Source of the DNA: Thermoanaerobaculia bacterium
GTDB lineage: Bacteria > Acidobacteriota > Thermoanaerobaculia > Gp7-AA8
Assembly: GCA_038244815.1 (NCBI GenBank)
Contig: JBBRTB010000016.1
Location: 29,056 to 93,055 of the forward strand
Length of the DNA stretch: 64,000 bases
Reading direction: 5' to 3'
In this document: piece after piece, positions 8,302 through 61,708 of the stretch
How the letters are laid out: the number at the start of each line of letters is the position of its first letter
Numbering within the stretch: the stretch's first letter is position 1
Translations under genes and position numbers: made by a program
Notes under the pieces: generated by a model
Database searches by the model: none
The model's input: the letters and a program-made list of their open reading frames with translations, nothing else
Told to the model about the DNA's origin: nothing

Positions 8302-8377
8302 TGGAGCCGTTGACCGGACTTGAACCGGTGACCTGCTGATTACGAATCAGCTGCTCTACCAACTGAGCTACAACGGC
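8302..8377 (-). tRNA. tRNA-Thr (anticodon CGU)
   Basis: The reverse complement GCCGTTGTAGCTCAGTTGGTAGAGCAGCTGATTCGTAATCAGCAGGTCACCGGTTCAAGTCCGGTCAACGGCTCCA folds into a canonical cloverleaf. The anticodon loop is TTCGTAA. CCA is encoded. Confidence 0.85.
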
Positions 8378-8739: not shown

Positions 8740-8816
8740 GCGCCCTTAGCTCAATTGGACAGAGCATCAGACTTCGGATCTGAGGGTTGGGGGTTCGAGC
8801 CCCTCAGGGCGCACCA
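8740..8816 (+). tRNA. tRNA-Arg (anticodon UCG)
   Basis: GCGCCCTTAGCTCAATTGGACAGAGCATCAGACTTCGGATCTGAGGGTTGGGGGTTCGAGCCCCTCAGGGCGCACCA has a 7-bp acceptor stem. The anticodon loop is CTTCGGA. CCA is encoded. Confidence 0.85.
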
Positions 8817-15207: not shown

Positions 15208-16458
15208 CTATTTCGCCACGCGTACCCGTAATTCCTCGGTGGCGGCATTCACCGAGTGCGCGGCCTCCAGCGACCGCGCCGAGGACAACCAATCGATCCA
15301 GCGCCGGAGGTCGCGCGCCGAGCGGTAGAGGCGCGGTGCGATGAGACGCAACCCGGTGTTGTCGCCGAGCCGCTTGAGGATTGGGGCGGCTCGCTGCGGA
15401 TCGAGACGCACCGACCAGTCATTGGACAGCCACGAGGCGTTGGCGAACGCCTCGGCCGAATAGCGGCCCATGCTCTCGTTGTCGAACGAGACCAGCAGTT
15501 CGCTGCCTTTTCTTCGAATCTCGCCGAACAGGCGCACCGCCGGTTCGATCCTGCTGATGACCTCCTCGTTCTGTTCGGTGGCGTTCGCCACGATGAGGCC
15601 GTCGGGGCGCGGCATCAGCGTTCCCGCGTTCACGTCATAGAGGACGATCGTGCCGCCATCGTCGAGAAGACGAGAAACCTTCGACATGAGCAGACGGTCG
15701 AGATCGCTGACGAACCGGGGCGGATGGCGGAACGTCGCCGCGAGCAGCGCGCCCTCGGGGAACCGGGGCCTGACCGCGGGTTGAGGTTCCGAGGTCTGAG
15801 GTCCGCGGTCCGGGCTCTCAACTCTGGCACTCAAGCTCGTCAGATTGAGGTCTTCGGCTCCAATCTGCACGGTCGTCACCACGGGACGGGGCATCGGCGG
15901 AAATCCGTTCGACTCCGGCCCCTGCTGGACGACCACCGCGTCCGCGGAGGGAAGCCCGTTGGCCACGGCCAGGATTCGATCGAGACGGGACGCACCGAGA
16001 GGCTCGCCGGCGGCAGGATTGATGAGGAGCGTGCCGGCGCTGACGCGGGCGTCGAGGCCCGACCCGAGCATCAGATATACGCGGACGATTCCGGCGCGCA
16101 GCGGATCGAGATGAATGGCGTAGCTGGTCCGCTTTGCAGCGCGCCACATCACCAGATCGGCGTCCCCGATCATCCAGGGGCGGGGAACCTGCGGCTTGTC
16201 GATCCATTCGAGGATGGGGTCGCGCGTGAGGGGATTCGCGATCAGCCTGGCCCGAACGGCCGAAGCAGCGGGGATGAGCGCGAACGTCTCGGCGTTCGCC
16301 GGGACGGCGGCCAGAAGATCGAGTTGGGCGGGCGTGAGCGGAAAGTGCACGCCGCCGCTCGCCGCCGGCACCGCCGTGCTCAGATAGATCACCACCGCGG
16401 CCAGGGCTACGGCCACAGCTACGATGAGGGTCAGGATGACGATCGTGAACTTCCGCAC
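15208..16458 (-). CDS. Hypothetical N-terminally membrane-anchored protein
   Basis: 416 aa with one N-terminal TM helix. Divergent from the GT4 genes. No family was recognised. Confidence 0.45.
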   Translation of the reverse strand: MRKFTIVILTLIVAVAVALAAVVIYLSTAVPAASGGVHFPLTPAQLDLLAAVPANAETFALIPAASAVRARLIANPLTRDPILEWIDKPQVPRPWMIGDADLVMWRAAKRTSYAIHLDPLRAGIVRVYLMLGSGLDARVSAGTLLINPAAGEPLGASRLDRILAVANGLPSADAVVVQQGPESNGFPPMPRPVVTTVQIGAEDLNLTSLSARVESPDRGPQTSEPQPAVRPRFPEGALLAATFRHPPRFVSDLDRLLMSKVSRLLDDGGTIVLYDVNAGTLMPRPDGLIVANATEQNEEVISRIEPAVRLFGEIRRKGSELLVSFDNESMGRYSAEAFANASWLSNDWSVRLDPQRAAPILKRLGDNTGLRLIAPRLYRSARDLRRWIDWLSSARSLEAAHSVNAATEELRVRVAK

Positions 16459-27520: not shown

Positions 27521-29197
27521 TCACATCTCCCAGATGACCGGCAGGATCAGCGGACGCCGTCCCATGGTCTTGCGGAAGTACCGCTTGAGCAGCGTCCGCA
27601 TTTTCTCCTGAAGCACGTCGGAGTCGCGCAACCCGTCGGTGGCACTTTCGGTAAGCATGCCAACAAGCTGCCGGCGCACTTCGTCCAGCACGTCCTGACT
27701 GGCGTCGACATGAACGAGGCCACGGGTGATGATCTCGGGGTCGCGGATCAGTCGTCCGCTCGAATCGATGGCGACGACGACGATGACGAAGCCATCCTCG
27801 GCCAGATGCTGGCGGTCGCGGACTACCACTTCCGGCACTTCCTCGGACTCCGCGTCGATAAAGACCTTGCCGTTCGCCACGCGCTCCTCGAGCACGCGCA
27901 CCTCGCCGGCGTCGATCTCCGCGACCTGCCCGTTGGTGATGACCACGCCGTGGGGCACGCCGACCGACTGGCCGAGACGGGCGTGATGAATGAGATGCCG
28001 CAGGGTGCCGTGAATGGGAACCAGGAACCTGGGCCTGGTCAGATTGAGCATCAGCTTCAGCTCCTCTTCGCAGGCGTGACCGGAGACATGCACGTCGGGA
28101 TGCTCGTGCGAGATCACCTCGGCACCGCGCCGGTAGAGATTGTCGATGACGTGGGCGATGGCCCGCTCGTTCCCGGGAATCGTGCGCGCGGAGATCACCA
28201 CCGTGTCCCCTTCCCCGATGACGATCTGCTTGTGCTCGCCGATGGCCATCCGCGATAACGCCGACGCCGGCTCGCCCTGTGTGCCTGTGGTCATGATGAC
28301 CAGTTTTCGGGGCTCGAGATCGGCCGAGCTGGCGCGCGCCTCGCGCGGGAACCTCAGGTAGCCGAGTCGCTCCGCGGTCTCGATGTTGTCGACGAGCGAG
28401 CGTCCGATCAGGAGAACCTTGCGGTTGTGCCGCCGTGCCGTGTCGATGACTTGCTGGACGCGGTGAATGTGCGACGCGAACGTGGTGGCGATGATGCGCC
28501 CATTGGCGTTCGCAAAAATCCGGTCGAGGGCGCCCCCGACGGTGCGCTCGGACGGGCAATGTCCGGCCACGAGGGCATTCGTCGAGTCGCTCATCAGCGC
28601 CAGCACCCCGCGCTCACCGTATTCGGCAAACCTGGCGATGTCGGTTGGTTTGGCATCGATCGGCGTGTGATCGATCTTGAAGTCGCCCGTGTGGACGATC
28701 GTGCCCGCCGGCGTGGTGATGGCCAGGCCGATAGCGTCGACGATCGAATGCGTGACACGGATGGCTTCGATGCGGAACGGCCCCGTCTCGACGACTTCAC
28801 GCGGCATGATCTCGCGCAGGTCGATGCCTTCGATGCCGAACTCCTCGAGCTTGTCGCGCACGAAGCCGAGCGTCAGCGGCATTCCGTAGACCGGCAGCGG
28901 AACACGCTCCACGAGGAACGGCAACGCCCCGATATGGTCCTCGTGACCGTGGGTCAGAAAAACGGCCCGGAACTTCACGGCGTTGTCGTAGATGTACGAC
29001 ATGTCCGGCACGATCACATCGACGCCGAGCGTGGCCGAGTCGGGGAACATCATGCCGCAGTCGACGACGATGGCTTCGCCGCCGTACTCGTAGATCATGC
29101 AGTTCATGCCGATCTCGCCGAGTCCGCCTAACGGGATGATTCTCAGAGGCGCCGGTTTGCCGGGTTGCCCGGTTTCTTGTGTGTAGGAATCCGACAT
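27521..29197 (-). CDS. rnj: Ribonuclease J (metallo-beta-lactamase / beta-CASP)
   Basis: Start taken at MSDSYTQ. HGHEDHIG metal-binding motif. About 558 aa. Confidence 0.85.
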   Translation of the reverse strand: MSDSYTQETGQPGKPAPLRIIPLGGLGEIGMNCMIYEYGGEAIVVDCGMMFPDSATLGVDVIVPDMSYIYDNAVKFRAVFLTHGHEDHIGALPFLVERVPLPVYGMPLTLGFVRDKLEEFGIEGIDLREIMPREVVETGPFRIEAIRVTHSIVDAIGLAITTPAGTIVHTGDFKIDHTPIDAKPTDIARFAEYGERGVLALMSDSTNALVAGHCPSERTVGGALDRIFANANGRIIATTFASHIHRVQQVIDTARRHNRKVLLIGRSLVDNIETAERLGYLRFPREARASSADLEPRKLVIMTTGTQGEPASALSRMAIGEHKQIVIGEGDTVVISARTIPGNERAIAHVIDNLYRRGAEVISHEHPDVHVSGHACEEELKLMLNLTRPRFLVPIHGTLRHLIHHARLGQSVGVPHGVVITNGQVAEIDAGEVRVLEERVANGKVFIDAESEEVPEVVVRDRQHLAEDGFVIVVVAIDSSGRLIRDPEIITRGLVHVDASQDVLDEVRRQLVGMLTESATDGLRDSDVLQEKMRTLLKRYFRKTMGRRPLILPVIWEM

Positions 29198-29242
29198 TGT
29201 CTTAGACCCGGCTACCCGGCAACCCGATAACCCGGCAACCCG
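29151..29242. repeat. Imperfect inverted octamer arrays (GGGTTGCC-type vs ACCCGGCA-type) bracketing the rnj start codon
   Basis: Direct reading. TTGCCGGGTT at 29157-29166 lies inside the first rnj codons. AACCCGGCAA occurs twice at 29213-29238 in the 5' leader. The rnj start codon (29195-29197) lies between them. Confidence 0.5.
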
Positions 29243-29258
29243 TTCACGCAGCAACCGG

Positions 29259-38921: not shown

Positions 38922-40250
38922 ATGACCGGCAATCTCTTTGGCGATGCGGACAGCCGCGACGCCCCCGAAACTCCACGAGGGGATGCCCCCCTTCCGGAGC
39001 GTCTCCGCCCGAAATCGCTGGCCGACGTGATCGGGCTGGAGGAGATCCTCGGGCCGGGACGTTTTCTGCGCAATGCCATCGAGAGCGATCGCATCCCCTC
39101 GATGATCTTCTGGGGGCCGCCGGGATCGGGCAAGACCACGCTGGCGCGGATCATCGCCGGCACGACGCGCGCGCGATTCGTTCAATTCTCCGCGACCAGC
39201 ACGTCGATCAAGGACATCAAGACCCTGATGGAAGAGGCGCGCAAATCACGGCAACTGCGCGGATCGAAGACGATCGTCTTCATTGATGAAATCCACCGGT
39301 TCAACAAAGCGCAACAGGATGCGTTTCTGGGGTACGTCGAGTCGGGCGACATCACCCTCATCGGAGCCACCACGGAGAATCCGTCGTTCGAGGTGAACTC
39401 GGCCCTTCTGTCACGCAGCAAAGTGGTGGTCATCCCGGCGCTGGAACGCGAACAGGTCATCACCATCCTTCATCGCGCCATCGACGATCCGAGCGTCAGC
39501 CAATACGGAATCGAGATTCTGCCGGACGCGCTCGACTTCATCGCCGCTACTTCCGCGGGCGATGCGCGACAGGCGCTGAATTCACTGCAGCTCGTCGTGG
39601 AGACGGCCACGAAGGAAGACGGGCCCATCGACGCCCCGAAGATCAGGACGATCCTGCAGCGCCGCTCCCTGATGTATGACAAATCGGGCGACGAGCACTT
39701 CAACATCATCTCGGCGCTCCACAAGTCGGTGCGCAACGGCGATGCCGATGCCGCCGTGTACTGGCTGGTGCGCATGCTCGAGGGGGGCGAAGACCCGCTC
39801 TACATCGCCCGGCGCATGGTGCGTGCGGCATCGGAGGACGTCGGCAACGCCGACCCGCAGGCTCTGGTCTTCGCCATCGCCGTCCAGCAGACCGTTCATT
39901 TCCTGGGCATGCCCGAGGCCGGAGTCGCGCTCGCCCAACTCGTCACGTACCTGGCGGCGGCGCCGAAATCCAACGCGGCGTACGTGGGCTACGGCGAAGC
40001 GGTGACCGAGGTGCGCCAGGGTGACAACCCTCCCGTGCCGCTGCACATCCGCAACGCACCCACGCGTCTCATGAAGGACCTTGGCTACGGCCAGGGATAC
40101 AAATACGCCCACGACTTCGAGGATCAGACCGCGGCGATGGACTGCCTGCCCGATGCATTACGGGATCGCCGGTTTTACGAACCGAAGGATGCCGGATTCG
40201 AGCGCGAGATGCGCGAGAGGCTGGAGCGAATGCGGAAGGCGCGGAAATGA
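38922..40250 (+). CDS. rarA: Replication-associated recombination protein A (AAA+ ATPase)
   Basis: Walker A GPPGSGKTT, sensor motifs and the MgsA C-terminal domain. 442 aa. Confidence 0.85.
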   Translation: MTGNLFGDADSRDAPETPRGDAPLPERLRPKSLADVIGLEEILGPGRFLRNAIESDRIPSMIFWGPPGSGKTTLARIIAGTTRARFVQFSATSTSIKDIKTLMEEARKSRQLRGSKTIVFIDEIHRFNKAQQDAFLGYVESGDITLIGATTENPSFEVNSALLSRSKVVVIPALEREQVITILHRAIDDPSVSQYGIEILPDALDFIAATSAGDARQALNSLQLVVETATKEDGPIDAPKIRTILQRRSLMYDKSGDEHFNIISALHKSVRNGDADAAVYWLVRMLEGGEDPLYIARRMVRAASEDVGNADPQALVFAIAVQQTVHFLGMPEAGVALAQLVTYLAAAPKSNAAYVGYGEAVTEVRQGDNPPVPLHIRNAPTRLMKDLGYGQGYKYAHDFEDQTAAMDCLPDALRDRRFYEPKDAGFEREMRERLERMRKARK

Positions 40251-40450
40251 AAATGCAAAATGCAAAATGCAAAATGCAGAATCAGGGTCGAGCGAATGCG
40301 GAAGGCGCGGGACTGAGAAATCTTGAATGAAGAATCGGCCGTCGCCGTGATCGTGATTTCTTAATTCGAAATTCGAAATTCACTCCGACAACGGCTCAGA
40401 GCAGATACCAAATGCTTTTTTGCATTCTGCATTTTGCATTTTGCATTTCG
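40249..40450. repeat. Composite structured repeat region: (AAAATGC)x4 and an inverted (GCATTTT)x3 flank about 135 nt that include a duplicated rarA 3' end
   Basis: Direct reading. 40250-40282 holds AAAATGC tandem copies. 40418-40448 holds the reverse-complement array. GAGCGAATGCGGAAGGCGCGG occurs at 40222 and again at 40289. CGAAATTC and TTCACTCCGA are duplicated. Confidence 0.5.
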
Positions 40451-40460
40451 AATTCTGCCT

Positions 40461-40865
40461 TCACTCCGAATACGCGTTCGCCTTCCTCTTGATCACCGCC
40501 GGCTTCCGGTCCTCGCCCACATTTACATAAACCACGGTCGCTTCGGTCACGACGACCCGTTTCTCCGGATCGTTGCCGCGGATGGCCTCACAGGTCACCT
40601 TGACGGTGATCGAGGTCGTGCCGATGCGTACGGTCTCGGTCCAGAAGGAGATGAGATCGCCGACGAAGACGGGCTCGTGAAAGACGACCTTGTCCATCGA
40701 CACGGTGACCATGAAGCGGGAACCCTGCCGGCGCGCTTCGATCGCGCCGGCCTGGTCGATGTAGGAGAGGATGACGCCGCCGAAGATGGTGCCGTGGGCG
40801 TTGGTGTCGCGCGGCATCATGAGCACGCGAATGGCGGGCTCATCCCACTTCGAAACGGCTTCCAT
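40461..40865 (-). CDS. Acyl-CoA thioesterase (hotdog fold, YciA/4HBT-like)
   Basis: 134 aa. Core DTNAHGTIFGGVILSYID motif. Confidence 0.75.
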   Translation of the reverse strand: MEAVSKWDEPAIRVLMMPRDTNAHGTIFGGVILSYIDQAGAIEARRQGSRFMVTVSMDKVVFHEPVFVGDLISFWTETVRIGTTSITVKVTCEAIRGNDPEKRVVVTEATVVYVNVGEDRKPAVIKRKANAYSE

Positions 40866-42944: not shown

Positions 42945-44393
42945 GTGGCGGGAATGGCCAAAAAGCGTAGCAGGGCAGTGCAAGGTGCCGAAGTCGATTG
43001 GTACCTGATATCGATCGACCGGCTCAAGCAGGTCGGTCTTGTCGTCTTGATTCTCCTCCTTGCCGCTGCCGGTTACTTCTTCTGGCAGAAGGAGAAGGGC
43101 AACCCGCGCTCGAATGCCGAATCCGCGATCGCCGACGCGCGACAGGCCCTGAACTCACTGGCTGCCTCGAAGGACTTCAACATTCACCGCCCCGAGTTCG
43201 ATCGTGCGCAACGCAAACTGGACGAGGCGAATTCGCACTTCGGGGCCACAAAGTACGCCGAGGCTCAGGACGCGGCGGTGGAATCGCAGACCATCAGCCG
43301 CGGTGCGCTCAGCGGCGACCGCGAGAACGACGCCCAGTTTCTCACCGTGGAAGGCGATGTCCGGTTTCAGAAGGGCGGTTCCGGCGACTTCAAACCTGCC
43401 GAGCCGCGCACTCCTCTATTCAATGGCGACTGGGTCAAGACCGGGGATCATGCCTCAGCCGAGCTCATCTTTTCGAACGGGTCGCTCTACACGATCGGCT
43501 CCAACGCGCTGCTGGAGATCTACTCGCAGGTCACCCCCGGTTCGTCGAAGAAGACGAACGAAGTGAAGATGCAGGTCGGCTCGGTCGAAGTGGCCACGAC
43601 CGACGACCAGTCGACCGTGCGCACGCCGGGCACGCGCGTGGTGATCGACTCCGAGTCGACCACCCAGGTGGGCGTCGACAAGGGGCAGCAGACCGCCGTC
43701 GTGGCCACGCGGGGAACCGCGTCGGTGGCATCGAGCACGGGCGGCCAGACCATCAAGCTCAGCAGCGGCGAAAAAGTCAGCGCCACCGCGGCGGGCCAGG
43801 TCTCCGGCGTCAAGACGCTCGCCGAACCTCCGGCGATCCTCTCGCCGGCCGACAACCAGGTGTTCCAGATGACCGGCGACCTGCGCGTGCAGTTCGGCTG
43901 GGACAAGGAGCCGGCGGCCGGCGCCTACGTCCTGCAGGTTTCCCGCTCCCGCCTCTTCTCGACCCTGGAGATCAACTCGCGGCGCCAGACCACCACCGCG
44001 AACGCAAAGGTGACCTCGGAAGGCTCGTTCTACTGGCGCGTCGCCTCCCTGGGAACCGACGGCGAGGTCGGGCCGTTCTCCTCGTTCCGGCGCTTCCGCG
44101 TCTCCGGAGGCAGCCGAGGCGGGTCGAGCGCGGTGACGGCGGACCGGGAGCCGCCGAAGCTGCAGCTCAACAAGCCGTACTCGATCGGCGGTCCGTTCTT
44201 CATGATCGAAGGGACGACCGAGCCGGGCGCCACCGTGTTCATCAACGAGGAAGAAGTGGACGTCGAGTCCAACGGCCACTTCAAGAAGCTGGTGAGCTTC
44301 AGCAAGACCGGCTCGAACGCGGTGGTGGTGAAAGCGATCGACCCCGCGGGCAACCAGACCGTGAAGTCCGAGTCCGTGTTCGTGGAGGAGTGA
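42945..44393 (+). CDS. FecR-domain membrane-anchored protein
   Basis: Single TM helix. FecR-like beta segment (GDWVKTGDHASAELIFSNGSLYTIGSNALLEI). 482 aa. Confidence 0.5.
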   Translation: MAGMAKKRSRAVQGAEVDWYLISIDRLKQVGLVVLILLLAAAGYFFWQKEKGNPRSNAESAIADARQALNSLAASKDFNIHRPEFDRAQRKLDEANSHFGATKYAEAQDAAVESQTISRGALSGDRENDAQFLTVEGDVRFQKGGSGDFKPAEPRTPLFNGDWVKTGDHASAELIFSNGSLYTIGSNALLEIYSQVTPGSSKKTNEVKMQVGSVEVATTDDQSTVRTPGTRVVIDSESTTQVGVDKGQQTAVVATRGTASVASSTGGQTIKLSSGEKVSATAAGQVSGVKTLAEPPAILSPADNQVFQMTGDLRVQFGWDKEPAAGAYVLQVSRSRLFSTLEINSRRQTTTANAKVTSEGSFYWRVASLGTDGEVGPFSSFRRFRVSGGSRGGSSAVTADREPPKLQLNKPYSIGGPFFMIEGTTEPGATVFINEEEVDVESNGHFKKLVSFSKTGSNAVVVKAIDPAGNQTVKSESVFVEE

Positions 44394-44397
44394 CGGA

Positions 44398-44600
44398 CGT
44401 TCTCGGTGCTGGGTGCTCGGTGCTCGGTGCTGGGTGCTAGGTGCCTCGGTGCTGGGTGCTTCGGTTCGCCCACCGCAAAACCGAGAACCGAGAACCGAGG
44501 GACCGCGGATCAAGGACCGACGACCGAGGACCGATGACCGAGCATCCAGCACCGAGCACCGAGCACCCAGCACCCAGCACCCAGCACCCAGCACCGACTG
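44398..44600. repeat. Inverted heptamer-array element: (GGTGCTS)n ... (CCGAGAA / GACCGAN)n ... (SAGCACC)n
   Basis: Direct reading. 44401-44460 holds about 8 tandem GGTGCT[GC] units. 44546-44596 holds the reverse-complement array CAGCACC/GAGCACC. Between them lies a second repeat (CCGAGAA x3). It sits in the intergenic spacer before mreB. Confidence 0.55.
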
Positions 44601-44664
44601 TATAGTTCGCGGGGCAAACGTTTTGCACCACGTCTTCGCGACTACGCTACCGAGATCCACCTGA

Positions 44665-45708
<1,044 letters not shown>

Positions 45709-45751
45709 GCGCGACACTGGCGTAATTTCTGCTCAGGGCGGTTGATCAGTT

Positions 45752-46612
45752 ATGGCAGTTCCCTCAGACGTCATCCCGCGTCGGCCAACGCTGTTGTTCA
45801 TCGTCGTCCTCTCACTCCTGTTCATTCTGATGAGCCTGAGCAGCCGGACGCGGTACATCGGCGAGACGCGTACGCTCTTCGAGCGCACCGTGATGACGGT
45901 GTTCTCTCCCGTGCCGCGGGCGGTGAACTGGGTGGGCGGGACGGCATCCGACATGTTCCACGGCTACCTGGATATGCGCCGGGCCGTGAATGAGAATCTC
46001 GACCTGCACCGCAGAGTGGCCGCGCTGACCATGGAGAACCTCAAGCTTCGCCAGTCTGCGACGGACATGCGCCGTATGCGCAGCCTCCTTGGCTATTCCG
46101 AGCAGTTCACGCTGCAGACCTCGGTGGCGCAGGCGATCATGCTCGACACGTCGGGCCGCTTCAAATCGATCATCATCGATCGCGGATCGTCCGACGACAT
46201 CGAGATCAACGACGCCGTGGCCAATGCCAGCGGGCTCATCGGACGCGTCGTATTGACGACGAAGGACATGGCCAAGGTACAGCTTCTGACAGACGGGAAC
46301 TCCGCGGTCGGCGCGCTCATCGAACGGACTCGGCGGCAGGGAGTGATCCGCGGTGACGGATCGGGTGGTCTGCAGATGAACGACGTGCCGGCGCTGTCGG
46401 ACGTCGTGGCCGGGGACCGCGTCTTCACGGCCGGCATCGACGGCATCTATCCAAAGGGGATTCCCATCGGCGTGGTCGTCAAAGCCGAGCAGGGGCCGAA
46501 CCTCTTCAAGAACATCCTGGTCAGGCCGGCCATCGAAACCGGGTCCATCGAAGAGGTCATCATCATTCACACGCGCAAGATTCCGGCGGGAGTGGTGAGG
46601 TACACCCCGTGA
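45752..46612 (+). CDS. mreC: Rod shape-determining protein MreC
   Basis: N-terminal TM helix, coiled coil and C-terminal beta domain. Follows mreB. Confidence 0.8.
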   Translation: MAVPSDVIPRRPTLLFIVVLSLLFILMSLSSRTRYIGETRTLFERTVMTVFSPVPRAVNWVGGTASDMFHGYLDMRRAVNENLDLHRRVAALTMENLKLRQSATDMRRMRSLLGYSEQFTLQTSVAQAIMLDTSGRFKSIIIDRGSSDDIEINDAVANASGLIGRVVLTTKDMAKVQLLTDGNSAVGALIERTRRQGVIRGDGSGGLQMNDVPALSDVVAGDRVFTAGIDGIYPKGIPIGVVVKAEQGPNLFKNILVRPAIETGSIEEVIIIHTRKIPAGVVRYTP

Positions 46613-50570: not shown

Positions 50571-50653
50571 GCGAGGCCTCGGGCCTCAGGCCTCGGGCCA
50601 CAGGCCTCAGACCCTCCCCTTTTTCCGAGGCCCGAGGCCCGAAGCCCGAGGCC
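50571..50653. repeat. Inverted heptamer-array hairpin: (GGCCTCR)x5 - CCCTCCCCTTTTTCC - (GAGGCCC)x4
   Basis: Direct reading. The arms are exact reverse complements. The 17-nt loop carries a T-tract. It lies in the divergent spacer between the S4 gene and hupB. Confidence 0.55.
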
Positions 50654-50667
50654 TGTATAATCAGCCC

Positions 50668-50937
50668 ATGATCAAGGCCGATATCGTCAACAAAGTCGCG
50701 GAGTCATCGGATATTTCGCGGGTGAAGGCGGCTCAGGCAGTGGACACGGTCATCGAAGGACTGCGGAACGCGCTCGCCCGCGGACAGCGCATCGAACTGC
50801 GCGGGTTCGGTGTCTTTCAGGTGAAACAGCGCAAGAAGGGCATCGGACGCAACCCCAAGACCGGCGTCGAGGTGAAGATTCCGCCGGGCAACACCATCCG
50901 CTTCAAGCCGGGCAAAGAGCTCCGCAATCTTCTGTAA
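50668..50937 (+). CDS. hupB: HU/IHF-family nucleoid-associated DNA-binding protein
   Basis: RGFGVFQVKQR...GRNPKTG arm motif. 89 aa. TATAAT lies 6 nt before the ATG with no Shine-Dalgarno sequence. Confidence 0.8.
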   Translation: MIKADIVNKVAESSDISRVKAAQAVDTVIEGLRNALARGQRIELRGFGVFQVKQRKKGIGRNPKTGVEVKIPPGNTIRFKPGKELRNLL

Positions 50938-58165: not shown

Positions 58166-59263
58166 TTAATTTCTCTGAATACTTTCTATGGAATCGACAA
58201 TCTTTTTTGTAGCTTCCGGTGTGGCCAGTCTCCCCGCTGCCAGACCCATCTGCCGCGTCCGCTCGGGGTTGCCGATGATCTCGTTGATGGCCGCGCCGAG
58301 TTTCTCCGGCGTCAGCTCCGCTTCCGTGATCACGATGCCTCCTCCCGCCCTCTCCACCGCGCGGGCGTTCAGCTCCTGGTGATTGTTCGTGGCCGCGGCG
58401 AACGGCACGAAGATGGCCGGCCGGCCGATCGCGGCCAGCTCGCCGATGGTCATCGCTCCGGCCCGGCTCACCACGAGGTCCGCGGCCGCGATCTCGTCGA
58501 CGATGGGATCGAGGTACGGCACCACCCGCGCCTCCGGAAATGCTCCCGAGGTGCGATACGCGGCCTGAACCTTCTGCAGCTCTCCCGGCCCGGTCTGATG
58601 AACGATGTGCAGACGGTCTTTCAGGCGCGAGAGGAATAGCAGGGCGCCGGTCATGGCGTCGTTGAGCGTGCGTGAGCCCTGCGAGCCGCCGAAGATCAGC
58701 AGGCGAGGCCTCGGGCCTCGGGCCTCGGGCCTCGGCTGCAGGAACTCCGCGCGAACCGGATTCCCGGTGACCACCGCATCCGGACGCTTCATCCGGGTGG
58801 CCGCCTCCGCGAAGGCGACGTCGACTCCCTTCACGAATCTTGCGAGCAGGCGGTTCGTGAGACCGGGAAACGCGTTCTGCTCGTGGATGATCGTCGGTAC
58901 GCCGCGCAGCATCGCCGCGAGCAGCACCGGGCCGGATGAATAGCCACCGACGCCGAGAACGACGTCCGGCTGGTACCTGCCGACGAGGCGAAAGGCCTGC
59001 GCGAAGCCGAGAGGCAGGCGGACGATGTTGCGGATGAGATCGAGTCCGGCCTTTCCCTTGAGCCCGCCGACCGAGATGAACTCGACCGGGAAGCCCGCCT
59101 TCGGAACGATGGTCTTCTCGAGGCCGCGCTCGGTGCCGACGAAGACGGCCCGGCGGTTCTTGTCGCGCGCGACGTACTCGCGAGCGATGGCGATGGCCGG
59201 GTAGATGTGTCCCCCCGTCCCTCCGCCGCCGACCATCAGTGTCTTCACGCCCGCCTCGCCCAT
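58166..59263 (-). CDS. murG: UDP-GlcNAc--undecaprenyl-PP-MurNAc-pentapeptide GlcNAc transferase
   Basis: GGTGGHIYPAIAIA N-terminal motif and the FGGSQGS motif. The linker contains the in-frame (GGCCTCG)4 array. Confidence 0.85.
   Translation of the reverse strand: MGEAGVKTLMVGGGGTGGHIYPAIAIAREYVARDKNRRAVFVGTERGLEKTIVPKAGFPVEFISVGGLKGKAGLDLIRNIVRLPLGFAQAFRLVGRYQPDVVLGVGGYSSGPVLLAAMLRGVPTIIHEQNAFPGLTNRLLARFVKGVDVAFAEAATRMKRPDAVVTGNPVRAEFLQPRPEARGPRPRLLIFGGSQGSRTLNDAMTGALLFLSRLKDRLHIVHQTGPGELQKVQAAYRTSGAFPEARVVPYLDPIVDEIAAADLVVSRAGAMTIGELAAIGRPAIFVPFAAATNNHQELNARAVERAGGGIVITEAELTPEKLGAAINEIIGNPERTRQMGLAAGRLATPEATKKIVDSIESIQRN
58705..58735. repeat. In-frame (GGCCTCG)x4 heptamer array inside murG (encodes PRPEARGPRP in the inter-domain linker)
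   Basis: Direct reading. The unit is the same as in the 50571-50653 element. Confidence 0.5.
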
Positions 59264-59270
59264 CGATTCC

Positions 59271-60368
59271 TCAGGTTGCCTGTTGTGAGAGATTGAGAAG
59301 AATGCCGATCGCCACCAGATTCGCGATCAGGGAAGAGCCACCGTAGCTGACGAGCGGCAGGGCAATTCCCTTCGTCGGCAAGAGACAGAGCGTCACGCTG
59401 ATGTTGATCAGCGCCTGCAGCGCGATCATCAGCGTGAGCCCGAGCGCCGCGTAAAACGCGAATCGGTCGTTGCTGTAGCGCGCGATCCGGAAGCCGCGCC
59501 ATACCAGAAACGTGAACGCGGCGATGAGCAGGAACGCGCCGACGAATCCCAGCTCCTCTCCGACGATCGAGAAGATGAAATCCGTATGCGGCTCCGGCAG
59601 GAAGAACAGCTTCTGCCGCCCGTTGCCGATCCCCAGTCCGCGCATTCCGCCGGTACCGAGAGCGATCAGCGACTGCAGGGCCTGGAATCCCTTTCCCAGC
59701 GGATCGGCCTCGGGATTGAGAAACGAGAAGAAGCGATCGCGCCGGTATGCCGCTCCGAACGCGAATGCGATGACCGCCGGCACGAGCGGAATCGAGATCA
59801 GGCCGATCAACCGCCACGACACGCCGGCCACGAAGATCATGCTGAAGCCGACCAGCAGGACCATGGCCGCGGTCCCGAAGTCGCGTCCCAGGAGAATCAA
59901 GCCTGCGAACAGGCAGAGGACGGAGGCGATCGGGAGCAGCGTCGTGGTCAGCTCGTTGATCCGGGCCTCGCGCCTGGCCAGGAACCTGGCCACGAACAGG
60001 ATCAGAACGGGCTTCGCGAATTCGGACGGCTGCAGGTTGAACCACGGCAGCACGATCCAGCGGTGTGTGCCATTGATGGGCGACTCGAACAGGGCCACGA
60101 CCAAAGTCAGCCCTGCCAGCGCCAGACCGGCGTATTGGACGCGGCGGTCCTGCAGAAGGGCCAGGTCGACGTGCATCAGAAGCATCATCACGGCGCCGCC
60201 GGCGAACAGCCACACCAGTTGGCGGGTCATGAAGTGATAAGCGTCGCCGGCGCCGAAGCGCTGTGTGGCGATGATGGCCGAGGCGCTGTAGATCATGACG
60301 ATGCCCAGGACGACGATGAGCATCGCCGCACCGAAGAGCCAGCTGTCGTAGGTGAGTTTTCGGCTCAT
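59271..60368 (-). CDS. ftsW: Peptidoglycan glycosyltransferase FtsW (SEDS)
   Basis: Start taken at MSRKLTYDSW, overlapping the murD stop (ATGA). FtsW/RodA motifs. Confidence 0.85.
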   Translation of the reverse strand: MSRKLTYDSWLFGAAMLIVVLGIVMIYSASAIIATQRFGAGDAYHFMTRQLVWLFAGGAVMMLLMHVDLALLQDRRVQYAGLALAGLTLVVALFESPINGTHRWIVLPWFNLQPSEFAKPVLILFVARFLARREARINELTTTLLPIASVLCLFAGLILLGRDFGTAAMVLLVGFSMIFVAGVSWRLIGLISIPLVPAVIAFAFGAAYRRDRFFSFLNPEADPLGKGFQALQSLIALGTGGMRGLGIGNGRQKLFFLPEPHTDFIFSIVGEELGFVGAFLLIAAFTFLVWRGFRIARYSNDRFAFYAALGLTLMIALQALINISVTLCLLPTKGIALPLVSYGGSSLIANLVAIGILLNLSQQAT

Positions 60369-61708
60369 GATTTCGGGTTGCCGGATTGCCGGGTTGCCGG
60401 GTTGCCGGACAGTTCTCTGACCAGTTGTTCGAAGTGTTCGCCGCGATACTCGAAGTTTCTGTATTGATCGAAGCTCGCGCATGCCGGCGACAACAGCACG
60501 GTGTCACCCGGTTTGGCGTGCTTCGAAGCCCAGTCGATGGCGTGCTCCATGTCGCCCGCGGGAACGATCGTCGCCGCACCCTCCAGCGCCTCCTCGATCC
60601 GATGCGCGGCCTTGCCGATGGTGATGACGCCGCGCGTTTTCTCCTTGACGAGCTCGCGCATGCGCTCGAATTCCCCCGCTTTGTCCTTGCCGCCGAGGAT
60701 CAGCCAGACGCTCGATGGCGGAAAGCTCTCCAGCGACTTGAGCGTGGCGTCTACGTTCGTCCCTTTGGAGTCGTTGATCCAGCGCACGCCGTCGCGCTCG
60801 CGCACGAGAACCATGCGGTGGGGCAAGCCGGCGAACGACGCGAACGCGGTCTGCACGGAAAGGTCATCGATGCCGGCGGCCCGCGCCGCCAGCCAGGCGG
60901 CCAGCGCGTTCTCAGCGTTCGCGGTGCCCTCCAGCCTCAGCGACGAGCGGGGAATGCGCCGCTGGTTGCCATCGACGCGAATGACCATCTCGTTGCCGTC
61001 GAGGTACGCGCCTTCGTTCACCTTCTGCGACGACGAGAACTGCCATAGTCGCGCGCGCGAATCGGGATGCCCCAACGATGCGTTCACGATCGCGAAGTCC
61101 ACCGGCTGTTGGTTGCGGAAGATGCGGTACTTCGCCGCCGAGTAGGCGTCGAACGTCGGATAGCGATCCATGTGATCGGGCGTGACGTTGAGCAGCAGCG
61201 CGATGTGAGCGTGGAACTTATCGACCGTTTCGAGCTGAAACGAGGACAGCTCGAGCACGTAGGCCCTTTGCTTTTCGAGATCGATCGCGGCGGTGAGCGG
61301 CTCGCCGATGTTGCCGGCCACGATGGGCTGCCTGCCGGCCACGCGCAGGATCTCGCCGATGAGCGCGGTCGTGGTCGACTTGCCGTTCGATCCGGTGACG
61401 GCGATGACCGAGCCTTGCAGATGACGCCAGGCCAGCTCGATCTCGGAGATGATCGGAATCGATCTCGACGCGGCGACCTGCAGCAACGGGATGGTCGTGG
61501 GCACGCCGGGACTGAGCACGATCGTGCTGACGGCATCGAGCAGGATCTCGTCCTGCCGTCCGAACGATCGTTGCACGCGCTCGTCGAGCGGCTGCGGCAA
61601 CGCCGGCGAATCGCTGCTGTCGATGAGACAGACATCCTCGCCGCGGCCGGCCAGAAGATTCGCCGCCGCCACACCCGACTTCCCAGCACCCACCACCAGA
61701 ATTCCCAT
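60365..61708 (-). CDS. murD: UDP-N-acetylmuramoylalanine--D-glutamate ligase
   Basis: GAGKSG N-terminal motif and GSNGKSTT Mur-ligase motif. The C-terminal tail GNPATRQSGNPKS is encoded by the TTGCCGGR array. Confidence 0.85.
   Translation of the reverse strand: MGILVVGAGKSGVAAANLLAGRGEDVCLIDSSDSPALPQPLDERVQRSFGRQDEILLDAVSTIVLSPGVPTTIPLLQVAASRSIPIISEIELAWRHLQGSVIAVTGSNGKSTTTALIGEILRVAGRQPIVAGNIGEPLTAAIDLEKQRAYVLELSSFQLETVDKFHAHIALLLNVTPDHMDRYPTFDAYSAAKYRIFRNQQPVDFAIVNASLGHPDSRARLWQFSSSQKVNEGAYLDGNEMVIRVDGNQRRIPRSSLRLEGTANAENALAAWLAARAAGIDDLSVQTAFASFAGLPHRMVLVRERDGVRWINDSKGTNVDATLKSLESFPPSSVWLILGGKDKAGEFERMRELVKEKTRGVITIGKAAHRIEEALEGAATIVPAGDMEHAIDWASKHAKPGDTVLLSPACASFDQYRNFEYRGEHFEQLVRELSGNPATRQSGNPKS
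60376..60410. repeat. (TTGCCGGR)x4 octamer array spanning the murD 3' end and the ftsW start region
   Basis: Direct reading. The reverse-complement unit (ACCCGGCA) recurs at 29206-29242. Confidence 0.5.

Follow-up and report, generated by a model that had tools for sequence, protein, structure and literature searches.

What is the long inverted array of seven-nucleotide repeats that stands just upstream of mreB in a Thermoanaerobaculia bacterium (assembly GCA_038244815.1), and does it do anything there? The element, here called locus 1, lies in the window, the 64,000-nt stretch of contig JBBRTB010000016.1 that we analysed, and was first picked out in an initial annotation of that stretch. We favour, at about an even chance, the reading in which locus 1 is a single member of a class of short palindromic repeats peculiar to its lineage, with an origin at the DNA level and a likely passive role as a hairpin at a transcript end.

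The initial annotation described locus 1 as about eight tandem GGTGCT[GC] units followed, after a spacer of roughly 75 nt containing (CCGAGAA)x3, by the exact reverse-complement array. The architecture is real, but its details differ. Tandem Repeats Finder (TRF) places the left array at 44402–44465 (period 7, 8.9 copies, 82% matches, consensus CTCGGTG, a rotation of GGTGCTS), and the 5′ arm holds about 9–10 units, in which G is more common than C and the variable base is the last. The triple repeat is present, as ACCGAGA x3 at 44480–44500, but this stretch belongs to the right array, which TRF follows as ACCGAGC units from 44480 to 44597 (period 7, 16.7 copies) and which outlasts the left array and spans the so-called spacer. 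A further register lets this inner region pair with the 5′ arm (68 nt, 71%), and TRF additionally calls a 21-nt period at the locus. The arms are not exact complements: they match at 87–93% over 42–46 nt in several registers (44403–44444 with 44556–44597, for example, at 93%). The expectation of a stem of 40 bp or more with many slipped registers held, since the inverted-repeat search found many such registers and as RNA 44394–44612 folds into a near-continuous stem of some 60 bp; its energy is –137.2 kcal/mol, and the 200 dinucleotide shuffles, at –83.9 ± 4.7 (z = –11.4), include none that folded as well. The base of the stem is GTTCTCGGTGC...GCACCGAC, its outermost pairs TCGGTGC/GCACCGA are kept in the closest relative (L043), and the sequence 3′ of it is CTGTATAGTTCGCGG.

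The stem begins about 6 nt 3′ of the stop codon of the upstream gene, and Pfam matches give the gene order FecR/Glucodextran_B gene, mreB, mreC, PBP2-type transpeptidase gene and rodA. On its other side, 13 nt 3′ of the stem and about 55 nt 5′ of the mreB ATG, lies a sigma-54-type promoter motif, GGCAAACGTTTTGCA, with TTTGCA; in 39 of 47 related loci its GG-N10-GC core keeps the same distance to mreB. A similar motif precedes mreC in most of the clade (Table 1), and the pair suggests that mreB and mreC have separate sigma-54-dependent promoters there. Scanning 44300–45800 for promoters and terminators revealed nothing promoter-like, and nothing resembling a terminator at the element. Judged from these predicted signals, locus 1 is placed between the end of one transcription unit and the next promoter, outside the mreB leader.

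Locus 1 is not alone. The initial annotation had reported the same architecture with other heptamers at 40249–40448 and 50571–50653, and both are confirmed with slightly shifted limits (elements 2 and 3 in Table 1); it had missed an octamer pair (element 4) and three unpaired arrays. We collected related loci, numbered with an L, by three routes. The upstream protein found 25 in species-representative genomes, all of them Thermoanaerobaculia or Acidobacteriota metagenome-assembled genomes (MAGs; best match 88% identity), and 26 more in metagenomes (best match 92%, L043), while exact-protein look-ups with MreB and HU added 17. The resulting 68 loci and the window amount to 745 kb after near-duplicate masking. 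The relatives are for the most part MAG contigs built from short reads; L012, from a 5-Mb contig, has the same elements. No strain of the window's own species turned up (the exact MreC look-up gave 0, and the MreB and HU look-ups and both collection scans gave only more distant sequences), and the nearest relatives stand at about 80% nucleotide identity and 92% amino-acid identity at most. Some short-read contigs start or end in heptamer arrays (L006 92–144, L010 7439–7473, L017 8286–8332), and such elements probably break assemblies and are under-counted in MAGs.

Counting TRF arrays of at least 3 copies, the data set holds 132 arrays of period 7 and 21 of period 8, alongside 23 of period 6, 14 of period 9 and 8 of period 3. 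Period-7 and period-8 arrays lie outside coding sequence in 139 of 153 cases (about 91% intergenic), and period-6 and period-9 arrays lie within it in 34 of 37. An excess over shuffled sequence was the check set beforehand, and it came out clearly: across the 74.6 kb that is intergenic in the window and the related loci, TRF gave 126 period-7 rows, where five dinucleotide shuffles averaged 0.6. Among the arrays, 92 of the 132 with period 7 and 12 of the 21 with period 8 have an inverted partner no more than 300 nt away, which yields 52 pairs with a median of 4.3 copies per arm and a median spacer of 19 nt; the spacers range from –2 to 221 nt and are unrelated. Most arrays have only 3–6 units, and the pairs fall into at least 23 unrelated unit families; many are orthologous rather than independent events, and family-level counts are given below as well. 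The most distant outgroup loci, L023–L025 (52–54% identity), contain no intergenic period-7 or period-8 array in about 60 kb. The class is thus abundant and almost entirely intergenic in one Thermoanaerobaculia clade, and the proposal of a structured intergenic repeat class with differing units is borne out, the class being specific to the lineage and far commoner than chance predicts. Elements occupy about 13% of intergenic gaps (tandem 54/406, convergent 17/90, divergent 9/113, on gene calls that for most loci come from our own simple gene caller), and gaps with a gene 3′ end more often than divergent ones.

Several properties of the pairs constrain how they can be made. One is polarity: G-minus-C skew is higher in the 5′ arm than in the 3′ arm for 45 of 52 pairs (p = 7e-8) and for 19 of 23 unit families (p = 0.003), and the T/A skew of the arms shows no polarity. 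Because the structure reads alike on both strands, the identity of the G-rich arm is an intrinsic property. An independent hairpin finder counted 62 array hairpins with a G-rich 5′ arm against 9 without, and found no bias in non-array intergenic hairpins (46 vs 35) or in coding-sequence hairpins (138 vs 132); the rule therefore belongs to the arrays and not to hairpins generally. Others are that unit families are common to the elements of one genome, and that both arms, and sometimes separate loci, change unit together. Two elements have an identical unit in 12 of 115 pairs drawn from the same locus (10.4%) and in 40 of 4256 drawn from different loci (0.94%; odds ratio 12, p = 5e-9), and at two sites 7.2 kb apart L051 has NGATAGC/GCTATCN where L055, 93.8% identical, has GGACAGC/GCTGTCC. 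Pairs with more copies in one arm tend to have more in the other (rho = 0.45, p = 8e-4). Variant units do not recur in mirrored order in the opposite arm (mean z about 0, with 0 of 47 pairs exceeding the 95th percentile), and a G-C-C-G unit order that looked mirrored at locus 1 by eye proved not to be general across pairs. Unpaired arrays show no orientation bias relative to transcription (12 vs 9).

The elements are stable among near-identical strains, and are expanded, shrunk, replaced or lost between species. At 99.3–99.8% identity, in three to four samples, two sister elements (three arrays) are base-for-base identical in the presence of flanking single-nucleotide polymorphisms; the sister-element arrays of L005, L030 and L031 (99.4–99.7% identical) are identical. 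At 80–93% identity elements are replaced or lost, and at 92–93% the unit at one site can be wholly different (L008 vs L010, L016 vs L018, L055 vs L060). The locus 1 site itself illustrates the range. In L043 (92% amino-acid identity) a GGTGCTC element, shorter and more degenerate, stands on the same stem base, GTCGGTGC/GCACCGAC; L006 and L007 have GGTTTTY units, L012 and L058 GCAGTNN or GGCAGTC, and L026 and L028 long hairpins of unique sequence; L002 and L003 have a short hairpin only, and L001, L004 and L005 no element. The gap of L049 is also counted here: position is kept, and length and sequence vary.

Some sites keep a hairpin while its sequence is replaced. Among 32 non-redundant loci the distance from the mreB stop codon to the mreC promoter motif is below 25 nt in 8, the window included, and 22 of the 24 longer spacers (at least 25 nt) fold at z ≤ –3 although their sequences are unrelated: at least ten repeat units are represented, along with long stems of unique sequence and short, simple hairpins. 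The PALP–MgsA gap shows the same pattern. Sites of this kind may benefit from a hairpin; it may also be that these compact genomes have additional intergenic sequence only where an element has landed.

Several structures at these sites deserve separate mention. The L033 2816–3975 region (mreB–mreC gap) and L028 9850–10003 contain perfect or near-perfect 40–45 bp hairpins of unique, non-repetitive sequence at heptamer-element sites. In L016 (6860–7521) a GAGGAAA array and its complement CTTTCCT stand about 600 nt apart within an mreB–mreC interval of about 1.8 kb, far longer than in relatives, which may be an insertion into an element's spacer. Two families of REP-like palindromes (after repetitive extragenic palindromic sequences) of unique sequence occupy the same gap types as the heptamer elements: GGCGGGCTGAGAGCCCGCC, with three copies in L013 (MgsA–thioesterase gap) and one in L018 (PALP–MgsA gap), and TCATCCCGAGCG...CGAGGGAT, in L015 (PALP–MgsA gap) and L026 9700–10003, part of which is matched by the GAGGGAT unit of L005 and L057.

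The data above show that the element exists, which class it belongs to, how that class changes and where the element is placed; how the elements are generated, and what locus 1 does as RNA, we infer from these patterns. Origin and turnover would both lie at the DNA level: arrays would grow or shrink through replication slippage in 7-nt steps, units would pass between arms and between loci through templated repair or gene conversion, and selection would remove insertions that harm genes, promoters or leaders. The survivors would for that reason be found right after stop codons and upstream of promoters. In the transcript of the upstream gene, locus 1 would fold into its long hairpin at the very end, just before the sigma-54-type mreB promoter, and it would most likely act passively at the transcript end, stopping read-through or holding off 3′ exonucleases, and so separate the upstream gene from mreB. 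Of the terminator or insulator role suggested initially, a transcript-end hairpin or insulator fits the anatomy, but a classical terminator does not: although the hairpin right after the gene is stable and G+C-rich, with a stem several times longer than the canonical one, no U-tract follows. The element appears dispensable, because the closest relatives without it retain the promoter and the gene order, and it is probably of little consequence for mreB itself. In our best reading it is tolerated in a gene-free gap, and is neither a phase switch nor a classical REP, miniature inverted-repeat transposable element (MITE) or intrinsic terminator.

Several observations weigh against this reading. 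The missing U-tract is matched by an empty consensus terminator scan at locus 1. Any function must be dispensable, because five relatives named above have no hairpin or only a short one at the site and the window's own mreB–mreC gap is only 9 nt. A terminator role fails for members that occupy a divergent promoter gap (element 3), abut start codons (the PALP–MgsA gap in relatives) or lie inside coding sequence. The unmirrored variant units mean that there is no fine-scale compensatory signal of selection for pairing. The depletion in divergent gaps is modest, consists of bare occupancy counts and uses crude gene calls. Finally, the G-rich 5′ arm is left unexplained by a model of slippage, repair and selection.

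The explanation that survives best beside the favoured one, and which we regard as possible though unlikely, is that the class is purely a mutational by-product: a lineage tendency for 7-nt slips and inverted-arm copying would litter tolerated gaps, and the RNA hairpin would be incidental. Elements do occur in all intergenic contexts, and also in a MurG linker and a MurD tail; the same sites are empty in close relatives; variant units are not mirrored; and the near-universal presence of such hairpins in mreB–mreC spacers longer than 25 nt is what insertion alone gives in a compact genome. Heptamer over-representation in many bacteria has moreover been ascribed to polymerase slippage, as the text of PMC4692102 relays from Mrazek 2007. 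However, a hairpin is kept across most of the clade despite sequence replacement (mreB–mreC gap, 22 of 32 loci; PALP–MgsA gap), both arms hold the same unit through a unit change, divergent-gap occupancy is 2–3 fold lower, and slippage alone explains neither the inverted pairing nor the G-rich 5′ arm.

It is improbable, but would account for much of this, that the two arms are made together, by templated synthesis that proceeds directionally at DNA ends, and not by slippage in each arm independently. Following a break, which could fall at the centre of a fragile palindrome, the same G-rich unit would be added centrewards to both 3′ ends, the template being another array or a trans-acting one; alternatively, a single G-rich tail would be made, snap back and copy itself. 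Such synthesis would explain the paired birth of the arms, the G-rich strand running 5′ to 3′ towards the centre and the genome-specific unit families, and also the joint unit switch 7 kb apart and the gain of an unrelated unit at 92–93% identity. If real, it would be a repeat-adding repair pathway not described in bacteria and might extend to Xanthomonas and Geobacter. Three other ideas were set aside. One hypervariable position per unit, through template jumping and an untemplated base, was suggested by concentrated substitutions (0.63 vs 0.52 uniform) and was dropped because slippage duplication of variant units explains the concentration equally well. Renewal from the centre outwards, with older degenerate units outermost, was seen at site A of L051, but outer and inner flanks are in general equally unlike the unit. 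The likeness of (GGTGCTG)n to the E. coli Chi site was too weak.

We consider it quite improbable that the arrays act as DNA, by binding a nucleoid-associated or regulatory protein (IHF/HU-type or other) or by forming a cruciform, possibly aiding sigma-54 enhancer looping. Sigma-54 promoters work with upstream enhancers and DNA bending, and locus 1 lies just 5′ of such a promoter; three units make 21 bp, or two helical turns, the period that TRF also calls here. The same architecture is annotated in Geobacter metallireducens as putative global-regulator (IHF/HU) sites (PMC2700814). Against this, no single sequence-specific protein fits all of the unrelated unit families, units at one site are exchanged for unrelated ones between close relatives, the promoter is kept in relatives with only 7–40 nt from stop codon to promoter, and arrays also occur inside coding sequence.

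A non-autonomous mobile element, REP- or MITE-like or similar to the bacterial interspersed mosaic element (BIME), whose hairpin is moved by an enzyme encoded elsewhere such as a RAYT-type HUH transposase, is very improbable. Presence varies at orthologous sites, the same unit is found at several loci of one genome, AATGCAA and GTGCTGA elements of L028 stand one gene away from the AAATGCA and GGTGCTS elements of the window, and unrelated REP-like palindromes use the same types of site in relatives. The REP/MITE-like label first attached to the class holds only loosely: copies of a family share the unit only (29151 vs 60374; 50574 vs 58707), with no conserved termini, shared terminal repeats, internal sequence or fixed length, and filled and empty sites compared at loci 1 and 3 show no target-site duplication. 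There is no GTAG or CGTC tag at the stem base, arrays grow and shrink in place (window vs L043), and no transposase, including the RAYT (IS200/IS605-like) domain, or reverse transcriptase was seen in the 18 or so Pfam-scanned open reading frames (ORFs) among about 60 in the window. Arrays of the same unit also occur in viruses: 42 stretches of (GGTGCTS)n, up to 17 units long, are found in IMG/VR viral contigs (L069–L110), several at contig ends and many from sample 3300047539, apparently one conserved phage site. Searched as (GGTGCTS)x3, almost all are unpaired and the one with a partner has it downstream, which gives no evidence for a phage origin.

The weakest proposal, the repeat-number regulation or slipped-strand (contingency) switch of the initial annotation, in which unit number would alter mreB expression or promoter-element spacing, we judge extremely improbable, for although simple repeats are classical slippage hotspots, the arms permit many slipped registers and copy number differs between the window and L043, unit number is invariant among near-identical strains (sister elements only), the element lies 5′ of the conserved promoter motif, so neither separates promoter elements nor falls within the leader, the gene itself (mreB) has a housekeeping function and most arrays are short.

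The other members in the window show how varied the settings can be. Element 2 runs from the stop codon of the MgsA gene to that of the thioesterase gene and takes up the whole of this convergent gap; its spacer holds an AATTCGA x2.7 array (40363–40381) that resembles the GAAGTTC/GAACTTC element of L001 in the same gap, so that from its sequence it looks like a newer array pair built round an older one. Element 3 inserts 80 nt between the start codon (ATG 50568) of a minus-strand S4-domain gene and the conserved TATAAT box of the divergent HU gene (50656–50661); in 9 relatives the site is empty, at only 17–41 nt. The TGTATAGT and TGTATAAT boxes beside the right arms of loci 1 and 3 were first taken for parts of the elements; that at locus 3 is not, because the empty sites show it to be the native –10 box of the HU gene. 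This extended –10 box, TGTATAAT (50654–50670), stands 6 nt before the HU ATG, likewise in L027, which suggests a leaderless HU transcript in the window; in other relatives the same box is followed by a 21-nt leader with GGAGG. Element 4 is flanked on one side by a class II aminoacyl-tRNA synthetase gene, at its stop codon, and on the other by the start codon of RNase J. The unit of element 3 recurs inside murG (58166–59263, minus strand), in the linker between the two glycosyltransferase domains, and that of element 4 encodes the C-terminal tail of MurD, the last 12 or so codons of murD (60365–61708, minus strand) adjoining the ftsW start codon, where a repeat array has to all appearances become a protein tail. 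An Rfam scan of the whole window at gathering thresholds gave no match at the repeat loci, its sole matches being two divergent tRNA genes (8305–8377, minus strand, and 8740–8813, plus strand).

Table 1. Repeat elements, promoter motifs and genes around locus 1 and elsewhere in the window (positions in window coordinates)
Feature	Position	Strand	Description and basis
Locus 1, 5′ arm	44399..44469	.	about 9–10 tandem GGTGCTS units; TRF, inverted repeats, polarity table
Locus 1, inner region ("spacer")	44470..44536	.	degenerate extension of the 3′ array, ACCGAGN units; TRF, inverted repeat
Locus 1, 3′ arm	44537..44600	.	about 9 SAGCACC units, reverse complement of the 5′ arm
Upstream gene, FecR / Glucodextran_B-domain protein	42945..44393	+	stop codon TGA 44391–44393; ORF list, Pfam
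Sigma-54-type promoter motif GGCAAACGTTTTGCA (GG-N10-GC)	44613..44627	+	outside the element, marks its right-hand limit; conservation and alignments by eye
mreB	44683..45708	+	Pfam MreB_Mbl, E = 5.9e-152
Sigma-54-type motif TGGCGTAATTTCTGCT (TGGC-N7-CTGCT)	45718–45733		before mreC; found in most of the clade
Element 2	40245..40462	.	AAATGCA x5.6 (40245–40282) and complement (40418–40462); 136-nt spacer; z = –5.7
Element 3 (locus 3)	50574..50653	.	RGGCCTC x5 (50574–50610) and CGAGGCC x4 (50625–50653); z = –6.3
Element 4, 8-nt unit	29151..29256	.	GCCGGGTT x3 (29151–29174) and AACCCGGC x4–6 (29206–29256)
Unpaired GGCCTCG x4.1 array	58707..58735	.	perfect; unit of element 3 (50574); TRF
Unpaired CGGGTTGC x4.4 array	60374..60408	.	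unit of element 4 (29151); TRF
Unpaired GAGGTCC x4.1 array	15783..15812	.	within an ORF with no Pfam match

The initial annotation took the class to be uncatalogued; alike pairs have been published for Xanthomonas (PMC4692102), Geobacter metallireducens (PMC2700814) and the short tandemly repeated repetitive (STRR) elements of cyanobacteria (PMC2670836). Locus 1 and its class share with STRR-like inverted pairs the array, the convergent complementary partner, the intergenic excess, the multi-copy units and the kept position. A close likeness is to the GGGAATC heptamers of Xanthomonas (Rehm et al. 2015), about 185 mostly intergenic arrays of 2–26 units, among them 70 convergent opposite-strand pairs in X. 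campestris and 75 in X. axonopodis; their position is conserved between species, their length and sequence vary, and they are transcribed, with function unknown (PMC4692102). As we interpret it, the convergent orientation puts the G-rich strand 5′ on each side, like the polarity seen here. Xanthomonas has one dominant G-tract unit, studied as a G-quadruplex former, whereas our elements belong to another phylum and many families, and most of their units cannot form quadruplexes (e.g. AAATGCA, GAATTGA).

Classes 1–3 of G. metallireducens (Aklujkar et al. 2009) are octa-, nona- and heptanucleotides (GTTGCTYN, TCTCCGTS[Y] and MTYCTGA) in 3–5 tandem units, mostly as opposite-strand pairs at variable distance, intergenic, also within operons (proB–proA), and absent in sister species (PMC2700814). 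The unit GTTGCTYN resembles GTTGCTG, GGTGCTG and CGGGTTGC in our set. We read the IHF/HU or global-regulator binding proposed for them as putative; polarity, turnover and hairpin energy are analysed only here, and the insertion sequence elements that insert at fixed distances from the G. metallireducens sites have no counterpart among our loci.

Cyanobacterial STRRs are 7-bp tandem units of several families, intergenic in filamentous cyanobacteria, with hairpins between hupS and hupL and upstream of hoxW, which, it has been proposed, may affect how stable transcripts are or couple translation (PMC2670836); the Nostoc hupS–asr0689 gap, for example, has TTGTCAG x3 and then CTGACTA-type units (PMC2408588). 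They differ in that a few families are common to many genomes and most arrays are single, with few pairs for GGGGAYT in Nostoc (PMC4692102). The TAACTGA repeats of Beggiatoaceae and cyanobacteria (MacGregor 2015) are intergenic, of 2–6 units, and relatives have shorter, repeat-free gaps (PMC4679880); they are a single unit in direct repeats that face the downstream start codon, with one inverted case among 170, in contrast to the inverted pairs described here. REP/BIME sequences of enterobacteria and pseudomonads are lineage-specific, strain-variable extragenic palindromes after genes and inside operons that are thought to stabilise upstream mRNA and affect termination (PMC3733652). A REP is a single imperfect palindrome of 20–40 bp with a genome-wide consensus, a GTAG/CGTC tag and a link to RAYT, and our elements are instead untagged tandem units of variable length.

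We found no paper linking such repeats to Thermoanaerobaculia, and by analogy with these systems the element is an addition of a new lineage to a known, poorly understood kind of repeat. What our data add is a quantified strand polarity, within-genome unit sharing, concerted unit switching, and stability among strains set against turnover between species; the G-rich 5′ arm, the sharing and the concerted change are constraints on any model. With about one in eight intergenic gaps occupied, the elements shape gene spacing and probably transcript ends, and they can lengthen proteins, as at the MurD tail and the MurG linker. Pairs of this kind have been reported separately elsewhere and never explained, and their occurrence in a fourth phylum with a polarity shared with Xanthomonas suggests a common mechanism, for which a 7-nt slippage step, the handling of palindromes by SbcCD and RecBCD, and templated repair are candidate factors.

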